DNA of 64,000 nt from Octopus vulgaris (lineage: Eukaryota), in assembly GCA_951406725.2 (NCBI GenBank), contig OX597821.1, forward strand, positions 49,476,001 to 49,540,000. The letters are read 5' to 3'. The position numbers and the translations under genes are program-made. The notes beneath the pieces were generated by a model. It saw only the letters and a list, made by a program, of their open reading frames with translations, searched no databases and was not told the origin of the DNA. Shown in pieces: positions 4,301 through 38,296 of this stretch. Within the stretch, counting starts at the first letter, position 1. Each line of letters begins with the position of its first letter.

Positions 4301-6720
4301 AAGAGTAGAGTGAAAAGAAAGAATGTCAGTAGCAAAGCAGATGGAATGTAAGTCATTGCCAATCAGCTGAATGACCTTTCATATGTTGCATTGGATGTCT
4401 GTGTAGCAACAGTGACAACCCAGACATGGGAACAAAAGCTATAATTATGACCTTCAATGTTTATTTCACAACAGTGACATTGCAGACTTGGTAGCAGTAT
4501 TTCCTGTCAATAGTCTAACAGATGAATATGTCAGCCTGTAATGATGGTGCTTTGTCTAACCCACACTGTCCCTTCCCAGTTGTATTCCAAGCAAAAACTG
4601 GTCTTCTTCAGAACCAGAAAATATTTCAACCTCTACCAACTACAAACCCTCTAAAAAGAAACTCAGGTGAGGATAACAATGGAGCACTACTCCCAAGTTT
4701 GGACAGTTAGTTTGTTAGATCATCCTGTTCAAAGAACATCAGGCTATTAGAACCTTCCAGTCATCTGCCAATTGCCATGTCTCAAGCCTCATCCTAGCTC
4801 TTGTCATCACTCATGAAATTGTTTTTTGCTGGAGTCAGCTAATTCTTTTTGGAACCCTGTGAACATCACTGGAGTTGCTGGCTTGGAAGTTGGGAGGAAT
4901 CCGACCTGATCACATGCCCAAGCCACTTCATCCTCATCCTGGCTACCAACTGACTTAATATGCATGAGATCCCTAATCTTTTTAATTCTTCTTCCAGGTT
5001 TGTGAGACAGTCTCTGTACAAAATGTGATGTCTCTCATGTCGCCATCTGGCAGAGTACTGCTAAGTATACAGACATCAGACATGCTTGTGATTCATATAT
5101 ATATATCAGGTCATTAAGAATGAAATTTCCAATTTTCTTATTTACCAAGTTTGACAGTTGTTAACTCTAATGTTTTATCCTGACAATTCTTTGTTTGACA
5201 GCATTGAAGAGTTACATCACCACTTTTCAAAATGTAATTCATTGTGAGTTTTCTCATATAAATCAATTTTTGTGAACCATGGATATATCTATGTAAGAGG
5301 CGGGCTTTTCAAATTCGAAAAGCCCGCCTCTTATATATATGAGTGAGAATAATTCTATGTACTATGCGGGATACATTTGGTGTTCGTCTGGGATGTTGAT
5401 TTTTTTGTTCATTTTTGTGTGTCTTGATTATGCTTGCACTGATGATTAAAAAGTGCATTTTGTGCACTAATTATGAAATCATATGATCTGCAGCTGAATC
5501 TAGTTTTAAAAGTCTTGCTTCGAGAGTTGCATTCCCTCGCGTTTAGTACAATGTGTTTTATTATGGTAGTTTTTGACTTTAAGAGTCTCTCTTAGCATGA
5601 GGCATTTATGTATAGTAATGCCCTTAATATAAATAAATATATTTAAAGGGAATAAGTAATAAATTTTTCCCTTATGAGGTTTTTGACACTAACTACTTGA
5701 TAAATTCTTATAAAGATTTTATCTTATTTTTAAATTATATGTATATAAAACCAAAGAAAAAGTCCACCTGTTTGATTGTCATGGTATTCACCAACACACA
5801 GAAATGACCTGCAGACATCCTGTCTTTTCTACTGTTGTTGCTACTACAATGGTCTCTGTTGTTTGAAGATGACAGGTCTCCTACCAACTCTACTTAGGTT
5901 GTCCCTACTCTCATCACTCATGTATCCATACCTTAGTGCTATCCACTAAATCCTTATGGTCCATTCTGCCATGTTTTACCACTATCCATCAGTAGGACAG
6001 GGTTCAAAAGAATACCATGTAGATGTCATTGGTCTTAGAGAGCTTGTCGTGGATTCAGTCATTTCCTCTACACTTAACCAATACATATATTGTTTCTTGG
6101 CTTTCCAATTTAGTCATTAAGTTTGTGGATTCAGTTGAAAATTATCTCAACTCACATGTAAGTAGTTGACATTATATAAGCATCTATCAGTATTGGTGAA
6201 GGGTGAAATGGCTTGATCAGTTATTATTTGGGAATCATAGCTCCTACAATTCATGAGCCAACAAGCAAGGGAACCTTTATGAGGTCAGTCAACCTGCTAA
6301 AAATAGCAACCAGATTTCTTTGAAACTAACCTTCTGCTGTAGCACCTGACAGTTTATACCATGTGTCATGTATCCAGTAATTATAGCTACTGAACTGTGT
6401 AATAACTGCTGACATGATGGCTGCACAACAACATCTAATGCAATATAAGGATAAGCAGTGAAACAGCTTTCTAGAATATCACAGAATCTGTGAAACCTTC
6501 TTCAAGCACTACAAGTGTGATGACTTATATCTAAATAAAGTTTCGAATTATCACAGACTCCAGTGGTCTTATACTTCTCCCATCACTGTAGTTCTTTGTA
6601 TGAGACAGGGTGCAAGTTTGGATCATGGCAAGCAGTAACATTTTTGGCCAGTTACAGGTTCACTGTTATAGTAAGAAATGGCTGGTTGGATTGTTGCTAG
6701 TTTTTGTTTTAAACATTACC

Positions 6721-8788: not shown

Positions 8789-8804
8789 TAATTGTACATG
8801 TATT

Positions 8805-9205
8805 ATTATTTTGTTGTCTTTGCCTGTCCCTGAGCTCATCTTCTTTTTATTTTGTTTGTTTTTTTGTCCTCATCTGTTCACTAACTGTCTCATCTCGAAT
8901 TACTTTTATTCATTTTCGTGTGTCCATTTCCGTATTTCTTGTTCATCCTTGTTTGTCCATCTCATTTTGTTTCGTCATGTTTTGGTTGCATTCCCAGCAA
9001 GTTCTCTTGCCGGTTGCCTCCAGAGTGGAAGCGATATTATCGATATTGGCAGGAAATTGCATTCAATACCTGGCCGATAACTGATGAGTTGGTGACCTTC
9101 TGTGTTTGTTTTCCGTTTGTCTGTACATTTAGTATGTTTTTCTACTTGACCTTCTATGGCTTTTTTCTGTTTGTTTATTACTATATGTGTTTGACTTCTG
9201 AAAAT
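8805..9205 (+). mobile_element. Non-coding retroelement 3' end (probable PLE-type pseudo-LTR) carrying the permuted hammerhead-like motif
   Basis: T-rich sequence ending in (TA)n; structured motif at 9014-9087; element class inferred from architecture only. Confidence 0.5.
9014..9087 (+). ncRNA. Candidate non-circularly permuted hammerhead ribozyme, copy A
   Basis: GCGAT-A TTATCG N10 GAAATTGC N14 CGATAA CTGATGA; stems covary with copies B and C. Confidence 0.7.
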
Positions 9206-9239
9206 GTGTATATATATATATATTTTTGTTCTCATAACA

Positions 9240-9287
<48 letters not shown>

Positions 9288-9292
<5 letters not shown>

Positions 9293-9462
9293 GAAAAATA
9301 CAAACTGGGACAAGAACGTAAAACATTTAGAAGACGATACAAAAAACACGGACGGGACATTCGAAGCCTTCAATCTTCAGTCAAGAACCGGATCATCCTA
9401 GCAATTTCAGCTGATTAATCTTGAGATCGCTCCGATCCGGCCAGCCCCAGGGAAAAACTAAG
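9288..9462 (-). mobile_element. Non-coding retroelement 3' end, same family as 21215-21850
   Basis: Shares gggacaagaa.g.aaaacat and ccagcccca.ggaaaaactaag with 21229-21380; abuts (TA)n. Confidence 0.65.
9374..9446 (-). ncRNA. Candidate non-circularly permuted hammerhead ribozyme with kink-turn, copy B
   Basis: On -: GGCTGG CCGGATCG GA GCGAT-C TCAAGA ttaa TCAGCT GAAATTGC TAG GA TGATCCGG t TCTTGA CTGAAGA. Confidence 0.75.
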
Positions 9463-9906: not shown

Positions 9907-9985
9907 TGTGAAACCAGCCATCTTTGATCTCTTCTTAGCTGTTGGCATTGGAGCATATTTAGCTGTTGTTTATCTTATTGTCCAA
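9907..9985 (+). CDS. NCLN: Nicalin coding exon, transmembrane helix (VKPAIFDLFLAVGIGAYLAVVYLIVQ)
   Basis: tttccag acceptor and gtaagt donor; diagnostic VKPA.FDL.LA.GI.AYL motif. Confidence 0.95.
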
Positions 9986-21214: not shown

Positions 21215-21850
21215 TATAATGCAAAAATGGGACAAGAATGCAAAACATCCAGATAATTAGGTGATACAAAAAAGGGACAGCAAAACATCCAGACAGACAA
21301 GTTCCACATTATCTTTGCAATTTCGGCTGGTCATACTCGGGATTGCTCCAATCTGGTCAGCCCCAAGGAAAAACTAAGCTAAGAGCACTAGATTCCTTGG
21401 AAGAAAGCAGCGAATGTATACGAAAACAAGGATGGGAAAAAACAGAGAAATGGTACACAAATGACAAACAGAACATTAACGAGTGTCTTTTGACTAAGGA
21501 CAAATTAAATTAAGCTGGCACGTATGGAAGTAAAATCTTACAGCAGGGACATAAGATTTGACAGGCACAGGGAGGAATATAGATATTGCATGGATGGTAG
21601 TTGAACCAAGAAAGGTCAGACTTGGCTGAACACCGGTCATGTGAGGAGAGGAGAGAGAGCTATAGGCAAAGGGATAGAAGAATTAAGGAGGGGATGAGTA
21701 AAAAACGAAAGGGATAGAATAAAGTGAAAGAGGAGGGACGGTGAGCATGAAGAGAAGGCCAGGAAATGTGAGAGAAGGGGAACGAAAGAATGAAGAGTGG
21801 AATGAGCAAAGTAAGTGTGAAGGGGTTGATAGAAAGAATAATAGTCGTAC
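21215..21850 (-). mobile_element. Non-coding retroelement 3' region (probable PLE-type) with permuted hammerhead copy C
   Basis: Homologous to 9288-9462; purine-rich tract on +; (TA)n on both sides. Confidence 0.65.
21294..21362 (-). ncRNA. Permuted hammerhead-like motif, copy C (core truncated after CTG)
   Basis: On -: GGCTGA CCAGATTG GA GCAAT-C CCGAGT atga CCAGCC GAAATTGC AAA GA TAATGTGG a ACTTGT CTG. Confidence 0.6.
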
Positions 21851-37396: not shown

Positions 37397-37635
37397 GCTT
37401 CCTGTAAGCATTGACACATTTCCTGTGTCCTTATGTTTACAAGAGGGAGATAAGCACCCCCACCCAGCTAAGCCAGCATCCAGAGACTAGTTTCTGAGTC
37501 ATTGCTCATCTTCAGACTGAAGACTAGCAATTACTCAGAAACTAGTCTCTGGATGCTGGCTTAGCTGGGTGGGTATGCTTATCTTCCCCTTGCAAACATA
37601 GGAACACAGGAAATGTATCAAGGCTGATAGGAAGC
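37397..37635. repeat. Palindrome of two back-to-back hammerhead-bearing (PLE-type) ends
   Basis: Centre tcttcag-a-ctgaaga at 37516; CTGAAGA..GAAACTAGTC on both strands. Confidence 0.85.
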
Positions 37636-37991: not shown

Positions 37992-38296
37992 ATAAGTATA
38001 TGAAAGAATGGAGTTGAACGACTAGTTAACAAATATCCTTTATTCTCGACATATGTTTCGAAGGCTGCATATTGCTAATTCCGAAGGAATAAGGAGTACA
38101 TTATGCAGATTTCTCTTCAGAAAAATCAAGGAAACTTATGTCGACATCAAAATGCACAAATTATTTCCTGAAGAGAAATCTGCATAATGTACTCCTTATT
38201 CCTTCGGAATTAGCAATATGCAGCCTTCGAAACATATGTCGAGAATAAAGGATATTTGTTAACTAGTCGTTCAACTCCATTCTTTCATATACTTAT
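37992..38296. repeat. Perfect 129-bp inverted repeat, each arm with a hammerhead core
   Basis: Arms 37992-38120 / 38168-38296; CTGAAGA-G...C-GAAACATATGTC. Confidence 0.92.

Follow-up and report, generated by a model that had tools for sequence, protein, structure and literature searches.

A candidate kink-turn hinge in a permuted hammerhead motif carried by octopus mobile repeats

Results

The window analysed here, a stretch of 64,000 nucleotides of Octopus vulgaris (contig OX597821.1, positions 49,476,001 to 49,540,000 of the forward strand), carries copies of a hammerhead-like motif that we refer to as A, B and C (Table 1). Copy B possesses CUGAnGA, GAAA, U16.1-H17 and stems I-III next to the core, arranged around a hairpin of 15 pairs (8 bp, two G.A pairs and 5 bp) whose 20-nt terminal loop contains the predicted cut site, GAAA and one strand each of stems I and II. 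Both tails exit the base of this hairpin and pair with its loop, and the core chain, instead of being continuous, is opened between A9 and G10.1, the latter of which pairs with 11.1 (U in copy B, C in its relatives). Where stem III meets the third helix, at what we call the joint, lies a 2x5 loop, made up of a 3-nt bulge plus GA opposite GA, which sits on the minus strand exactly where a preliminary description of this DNA had placed it. That description had read the loop as a kink-turn (k-turn) consensus with stem III as its C stem, and the orientation agrees with the copy B sequence; the link lengths it gave (1 nt for stem I, 0 nt for stem II, and 4 nt from stem I to stem II) were likewise all found. 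A weakness of this particular copy is that L1 = U can pair with A1n, and the energy model prefers that U-A pair by 0.5 kcal/mol.

Table 1. Hammerhead-like copies in the window and the parts of copy B, in window positions
Feature	Positions	Strand	Basis
Copy B repeat: 5'-truncated 3' end of a non-coding mobile repeat, running into (TA)n	9276-9462	-	98.9% identical to L027 over 187 bases
Whole arm of copy B: NC/third helix, k-turn and stem III, enclosing the 20-nt loop	9388-9440	-	Pairing, folding, covariation
Stem II 5' strand, the 5'-most block; G10.1 at 9446; 0-nt link to third helix at 9441	9441-9446	-	3/6 pairs change on both sides; other families pair likewise with other sequences
NC/third helix 5' strand; 3n = G, 4n = C; counterpart of helix 'I' in type-SGC hammerheads (PMC10085705, excerpts)	9433-9440	-	Covariation
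K-turn non-bulged strand: G2n 9432, A1n 9431	9431-9432	-	Invariant in 12/12 rows of alignment A2
Stem III 5' strand, ending in U16.1; C stem of the k-turn; -1n = G	9426-9430	-	Covariation; pairs with 9405-9401
C17; predicted cut 9425/9424	9425	-	Hammerhead analogy and 5'-end pile-up of copies
Stem I 5' strand	9419-9424	-	4/6 pairs change on both sides
Link between stems I and II, 4 nt	9418-9415	-	Copy B sequence
Stem II 3' strand; 11.1 (9409) = U here, C in nearly all relatives	9409-9414	-	Comparison with relatives
Core GAAA (9408-9405) and stem III 3' strand; -1b = C at 9401	9401-9408	-	Copy B sequence
K-turn bulged strand: L1-L3 9400-9398, G1b 9397, A2b 9396	9396-9400	-	GA invariant in A2, triplets variable
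NC/third helix 3' strand; 3b = U, 4b = G	9388-9395	-	Covariation; 8 bp with 9440-9433
1-nt link (9387) and stem I 3' strand (9386-9381)	9381-9387	-	Covariation
Core CUGAnGA, the 3'-most block; no stem II strand after it	9374-9380	-	Copy B sequence
Copy A: same cage, older family, 3x6 loop at the joint, bulged-strand G mutated	9013-9087	+	Comparison with relatives
Copy C: k-turn intact (21356-21304), CUGAnGA deleted	21297-21362	-	Comparison with relatives

The same arrangement with other bases had been reported for copy C, and its 2x5 GA/GA loop was found as described. Relatives of copy C match the query over bases 1-92 and then resume about 50 bases further on, and with its CUGAnGA half gone this copy is presumably dead as a ribozyme. 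Copy A had been called degenerate; this holds for the copy itself, which has lost the bulged-strand G, but not for its family, most members of which keep GA on both strands within a larger 3x6 loop. Copies A and B stand tail to tail around one (TA)n stretch (window 8793-9462), two families inserted at the same microsatellite. Elsewhere in the window, a short hydrophobic open stretch between AG and GT (9908-9985, plus strand) is probably a host membrane-protein exon, in which case the ribozyme copies would be intronic, and two long near-perfect inverted repeats (about 37430-37600 and 38030-38260) give mirror matches on both strands.

A loose k-turn hairpin (C stem of at least 4 and NC stem of at least 6) occurs once in the window against 0.83 times per shuffle, and such a hairpin by itself is not beyond chance; conservation between families is the stronger evidence. 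With the actual stem lengths of 5 and 8 bp, the window again contains one, against 0.025 in 40 shuffles. An Rfam scan of the window gave 0 matches, the model for canonical hammerhead types I-III included, and the minimum-energy fold of the 73-nt copy B, computed without pseudoknots, was uninformative (z = -0.76). We also considered and set aside a fourth stem bridging the A9/G10.1 gap, for which a duplex beat shuffles at p < 0.05 in only 1 of 18 copies, an alternative stem II drawn from bases 3' of CUGAnGA, whose pairing is not kept across families, and a snoRNA or box C/D identity, which would call for a different order of the boxes and of whose three folding features only one fits.

The between-family evidence comes in part from alignment A2, which comprises 12 variants of the B/C group; these form one related group whose rows are not independent, and 2 of 14 rows were left out of the pair count, a Naiad_O row that had been misaligned in alignment A1 and a row lacking G2n that has no k-turn register. 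Across the four helices of the A2 alignment, 90% of cells are paired and 13 of 25 pairs change on both sides, stem III (98% paired) and the NC helix (88%) with compensatory changes among them. None of 500 shuffles reached the observed covariation, a count that is not a probability because the rows are related, and slid controls were 12-44% paired. Covariation in all four helices supports the closed double three-way-junction cage that had been proposed from the sequence. Within these 12 rows both GA steps are invariant while stems and loops differ. In a larger sample of 84 distinct intact-looking copies, 70 have GA on both strands and together show 17 kinds of loop triplet; this sample covers few families, was chosen in part by similarity or by fixing one GA, and includes about four rows in which an A or D copy was read out of register. 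The conservation of GA and NNN-GA among copies, on which the preliminary description had made its k-turn depend, is therefore found in both sets. The pairings of B/C are formed with other sequences in families A, D, E and Naiad_O, and the GA/GA loop recurs in B/C, A, D and Naiad_O, which have no stem sequence in common. The GA/GA steps are conserved amid a varying loop and varying stems in the B/C group and in Naiad_O, and not in all families.

Whether a k-turn folds in metal ions or relies on protein depends in part on the pairs that flank it. A C:G pair at -1b:-1n and G at 3n favour folding in Mg2+ alone (passages of PMC8191799 and PMC4382518), while 4b:4n = G:C, which is box C/D-like (a passage of PMC5689011), and a Watson-Crick 3b:3n pair impair ion folding (passages of PMC8191799, PMC4382518 and PMC5689011). 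Copy B, with C:G at -1b:-1n, U.G at 3b:3n and G:C at 4b:4n, combines two favourable features with one unfavourable. It has one of the three features of box C/D-type k-turns (G:C at -1b:-1n or U.U at 3b:3n, together with G:C at 4b:4n). Among the 70 copies with GA on both strands, 44 have C:G and 12 have U:A at -1b:-1n, and at 3b:3n U.G occurs in 46 and U.U in 16. The 3b:3n pair is C-G in family A and G-C in family D, and Naiad_O combines U.U at this position with U:A at -1b:-1n; given their Watson-Crick 3b:3n pair, families A and D would need the cage or a protein to fold. The earlier suggestion that cleavage might be protein-dependent finds no support for copies B or C, in which -1b:-1n C:G and 3n = G permit folding in Mg2+ alone. 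Binding of 15.5K to the copy B k-turn is plausible from its sequence; dependence on 15.5K is not indicated.

We next consider how far the k-turn extends among related repeats. We classed by eye the first 100 matches to an unbiased 3'-half pattern. Standard k-turn families account for 49, copies with an enlarged GA/GA loop for 12, copies with an AGUA/GAA loop for 29 and copies without G2n for 4, leaving 6 unassigned. About one third of the sampled copies have no standard protein-binding k-turn site. The AGUA/GAA loop (for example in L124, L130, L133, L136, L143, L157 and L168) resembles the loop E motif; it retains A2b, G2n and A1n and as such could be a complex k-turn. Families D and E have stem II in common, which suggests conversion of one loop type into the other. 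Searching with a pattern for complete AGUA/GAA copies yielded 98 matches against 117 controls, and the 5' half of that group rests on about ten copies. An abundant subfamily of B (L090 and L225, met also as loose ends in runs X2 and X6) has U in place of G2n and can pair as a plain 4-nt bulge, making it a natural k-turn mutant; it can be read either in this way or as a 2n = U variant of the kind known from Kt-23 (a passage of PMC2790904). The joint is an internal loop or a bulge in almost every family, with the 3' (bulged) strand the longer in most, and the arm measures about 13-16 pairs across octopus families. Because this position is occupied by other loops in related repeats, the k-turn is likely to be one solution at the joint and not a requirement.

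The repeat that carries copy B has a full unit of about 830 bp (family B) and occurs in tandem arrays as well as alone, most copies of the motif being solitary. One locus, L031 (G000:C6:85539777-85545540), consists of eight head-to-tail family B units at a spacing of about 830 bp, one of them shorter (about 655 bp), an organisation that is retrozyme-like. In the G000 genome, first-look candidates from a DNA search numbered 2,694 for copy B, 395 for copy A and 902 for copy C. A 3'-half pattern that leaves out the k-turn bases matched 32,903 times in the same genome against 2,735 for a reversed control, and with GA fixed 7-8 bases after GAAA it matched 18,187 times against 296. The family B repeat shows a bias towards insertion at (TA)n, 5' truncation and tandem copies. 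Family B units contain no ORF, and neither a reverse transcriptase (RT) nor an endonuclease was found upstream of B, C or A in any copy examined. An endonuclease fragment in L015 was weighed as a family B partner and treated as part of another element, separated as it is by microsatellites.

If the RNA is cleaved after C17, the cut would set the 5' end of many template RNAs, so that genomic copies should start at or just after C17. By eye, 27 distinct loci with truncated copies flanked by (TA)n were identified among the first 100 listed; 23 of the 27 start at or past the predicted site, 5 of these exactly there, and 0 start in the 10 bases before it. In 58 copies picked on their 3' half only, 20 end within 16 positions after the site, while the next 30 positions hold 9 breaks that we assign by eye to 3 true ends and 6 cases of subfamily divergence, giving 20 of 23 true ends near the site (p = 4e-7). 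Genome-wide, minus-strand junctions with (TA)n number 92 within 2 nt of the site compared to 53 spread over 9 upstream positions. These pile-ups are to be read with two limits, namely that there is no baseline 3' of GAAA and that TA microhomology helps. The subfamily lacking G2n contributes 20 of the 92 junctions at the site, more than its share, indicating that a standard k-turn is unnecessary for the pile-up signature. Many copies are full length. Overall, the pile-up fits reverse transcription running off cleaved RNA and would be an indirect pointer to cleavage in vivo.

Naiads, a group of Penelope-like elements, have been reported to be without canonical hammerheads, and eight of them, Naiad_Ovul included, were flagged 'HHR_half_core' (Craig et al. 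2021, passages of PMC8557442). We found that the Naiad_O family (L173-L192), whose stems look unrelated to those of family B, has the same 2x5 GA loop and a standard k-turn, and that its tail agrees by eye with the published Naiad_Obim and Naiad_Ovul tails in the PMC8557442 supplement. This near identity, judged by eye, points to an octopus-like genome for G000. A Naiad_O cage lies 0.7-2.5 kb 3' of the RT in 11 of 50 RT loci, one of which is the query's own locus, and 9 of the 11 have both GA steps; in these loci the RT is upstream of the cage and no endonuclease follows it. The cage motif was absent from the 7 loci with a C-terminal-endonuclease element that we checked. A young Penelope-like family (L263-L266 and L282) has open frames of 753-782 codons from stop to stop, with an RT and then, by eye, a GIY-YIG-like domain, and no cage nearby. 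In one of its members, L265, a canonical minimal type I hammerhead near position 6176 shares its 6-bp stem II sequence with family B and carries one additional base between A9 and G10.1, where the cage form is opened.

Published Naiad tails were also classed by eye from the portions of that supplement around CUGAnGA matches. Eight have the open-core topology: 2 with a k-turn, 3 with a bulge of 6-7 nt, 1 with another asymmetric loop, 1 with an extra hairpin and 1 with a 1-nt bulge. Five further tails, in the portions around the records of Naiad_Hcon, Naiad-2_Nbra and Naiad-3_Nbra (two are printed just before nematode Naiad headers), appear by eye to be complete type CSG, opened at the joint; this permutation was previously known from only two metagenome sequences. 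As an autonomous partner of family B was not found upstream of the copies examined, we infer, and do not observe, mobilisation of B by Naiads.

Discussion

The layout of copy B poses a problem of geometry. Stems II and III stack in the hammerhead (Eckert et al. 2023, passages of PMC10085705), and given links of 0 and 1 nt the hairpin arm must fold back for the tails to meet its loop. A trigonometric estimate puts the gap at 67 A for a straight arm, about 30 A at a bend of 50 degrees and about 25 A at 40 degrees, compared to a reach of roughly 25-31 A (about 25 A for the 0-nt link). On this rough estimate a straight arm would be excluded for a monomer and a k-turn would only just close the cage. 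The joint between stem III and the third helix is also the one unexplained geometric problem of SGC ribozymes according to the same passages. In SGC forms the joint has a link of 0-44 nt on one strand and the chain ends on the other, and in the excerpted CSG tails the other strand is open. Since SGC and CSG are broken or loose at the joint while both strands are continuous here, a built-in bend would take the place of the break. The proposal that the kink makes the permuted order feasible accordingly holds in part: the estimated gap closes at 40-50 degrees, and the known SGC and CSG forms are broken at the joint. As a general rule it is not supported, given that standard k-turns make up only 49 of the 100 matches and 2 of the 8 open-core Naiad tails in the supplement excerpts, and given the site junctions of the subfamily lacking G2n.

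We consider it reasonably likely, judging from the sequences compared here, that the k-turn is a hinge that closes a non-circularly permuted hammerhead into its self-cleaving shape, and that it is probably folded by Mg2+ and the RNA itself with no need for protein. The tails would reach the loop over links of 0-1 nt only if the hairpin bends back sharply, and the k-turn would supply this bend. Cleavage would then cut monomers from tandem transcripts of Naiad-type Penelope-like elements and of their non-autonomous partners.

A different arrangement would dispense with the bend altogether. If the active ribozyme were a dimer, or formed between tandem units, the tails of one unit would dock on the loop of another, the arm need not fold back and the joint loop would be only flexible or protein-binding. 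Dimeric cleavage is reportedly known for Penelope-associated hammerheads. The tandem arrays at a spacing of about 830 bp are in keeping with such pairing, as are the highly variable joint (AGUA/GAA loop, bare bulge, 1-nt bulge, extra hairpin), the cut-site junctions of the subfamily lacking G2n and the one Naiad tail in the excerpted supplement that has a 1-nt bulge at its joint and would be unable to close as a monomer. Yet most copies are solitary, the joint is nearly always an internal loop or bulge with a mostly longer 3' strand, as folding back needs, arm lengths stay near 13-16 pairs in octopus families, and the published SGC and CSG forms cleave during transcription (passages of PMC10085705); dimeric action thus seems to us unlikely. 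That the GA/GA loop has no function, being inherited within a repeat family and resembling a k-turn by chance, is a reading to which we give very little weight. It would accommodate the frequency of loose k-turn hairpins in shuffled windows, the unremarkable z-score of the 73-nt fold and the families from which the loop is missing, but it is at odds with a GA that stays fixed while the adjoining loop bases and all stems change, and with the recurrence of the loop in families having no stem sequence in common.

The k-turn could instead serve mainly as a landing site for the host protein 15.5K/Snu13, with the ribozyme off until bound or with the protein routing the retroelement RNA, such that cleavage would be gated by the host. 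L7Ae-family proteins bind most k-turns (a passage of PMC8191799), and a helper protein has been raised as a possibility for SGC ribozymes (a passage of PMC10085705). In copy B the bulged strand is box C-like and 4b:4n is G:C; the 3b:3n pairs C-G of family A and G-C of family D do not fold in ions alone, and Naiad_O has U.U with U:A at -1b:-1n. The many full-length copies mean that some transcripts escaped cutting, which a protein gate would also explain. Against these points, the commonest pairs at -1b:-1n and 3b:3n favour folding in Mg2+, tertiary contacts can also fold a k-turn (a passage of PMC3651934), and about one third of sampled copies are without the standard binding site, which leads us to regard a mainly protein-directed role as improbable. 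A bolder version, to which we likewise attach a low probability, is that the motif represents a fourth natural hammerhead wiring that is switched by the host: 15.5K/Snu13 would bind the k-turn, close the cage and decide which Naiad transcripts are cut, with families tuning the hinge between ion and protein folding.

Compared with standard k-turns (Kt-7, the SAM-I riboswitch, box C/D and U4; passages of PMC8191799, PMC4382518 and PMC5689011), the copy B loop has the same C stem, 3-nt bulge, tandem G.A/A.G pairs and NC stem, and its -1b:-1n C:G and 3n = G are those of k-turns that fold in ions. It differs in that its terminal loop is half of a ribozyme core, clasped by both tails, and in that 4b:4n is G:C as in box C/D. 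With type-SGC hammerheads (HRIMA-1 and variants; passages of PMC10085705) copy B has in common the S-G-C block order, the short link between stem I and stem II, a third helix that connects the remaining strands of both stems, and all core nucleotides. Unlike them, block C of copy B is split between A9 and G10.1, a break assumed to be impossible in those passages, the 5' strand of stem II is the 5'-most element, and both strands are continuous through the joint of stem III and the third helix. Moreover, an animal genome contains the copy B motif tens of thousands of times, while the same passages report no SGC hammerhead from the genomes of known organisms. On a circular drawing, type CSG (passages of PMC10085705) and the CSG-ordered nematode Naiad tails (excerpts of the PMC8557442 supplement) give this three-helix cage as well; their opening lies at the joint where copy B has its k-turn bulge, and their block C is intact. 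The words 'kink' and 'k-turn' do not appear in the text and supplement of PMC10085705, and a literature search, with most subscription papers outside its reach and passages of bioRxiv 10.64898/2026.07.22.740005, PMC3088659 and PMC13725137 included, returned no description of the copy B RNA and no hammerhead with a k-turn. Finally, family B resembles Naiads (passages of PMC8557442) and animal non-LTR retrozymes (passages of bioRxiv 10.64898/2026.07.22.740005) in the position of the motif at the 3' end, in its (TA)n targets and in its tandem units, and a sister cage follows a Naiad-type RT; it differs from Naiads in that it is non-coding, and published Naiads are reported in those passages to be without a canonical hammerhead.

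K-turn and hammerhead chemistry were each known separately. Their combination offers a testable answer to a published puzzle, namely how non-circularly permuted hammerheads join stem III to the third helix when the two lie far apart in the crystal structure (passages of PMC10085705), and if cleavage is confirmed, copy B would be a hammerhead that incorporates a k-turn and whose core is opened where a break had been assumed impossible. A k-turn within a ribozyme would also provide a ready handle for L7Ae-controlled RNA switches, and the hinges that occur naturally in the genome (k-turn, enlarged GA loops, loop-E-like loops and a bare bulge) form a series in which to ask what bend suffices. For the Naiads, our findings may explain why these elements seemed to be hammerhead-less: the motif would be present in them, in a wiring that standard searches miss.
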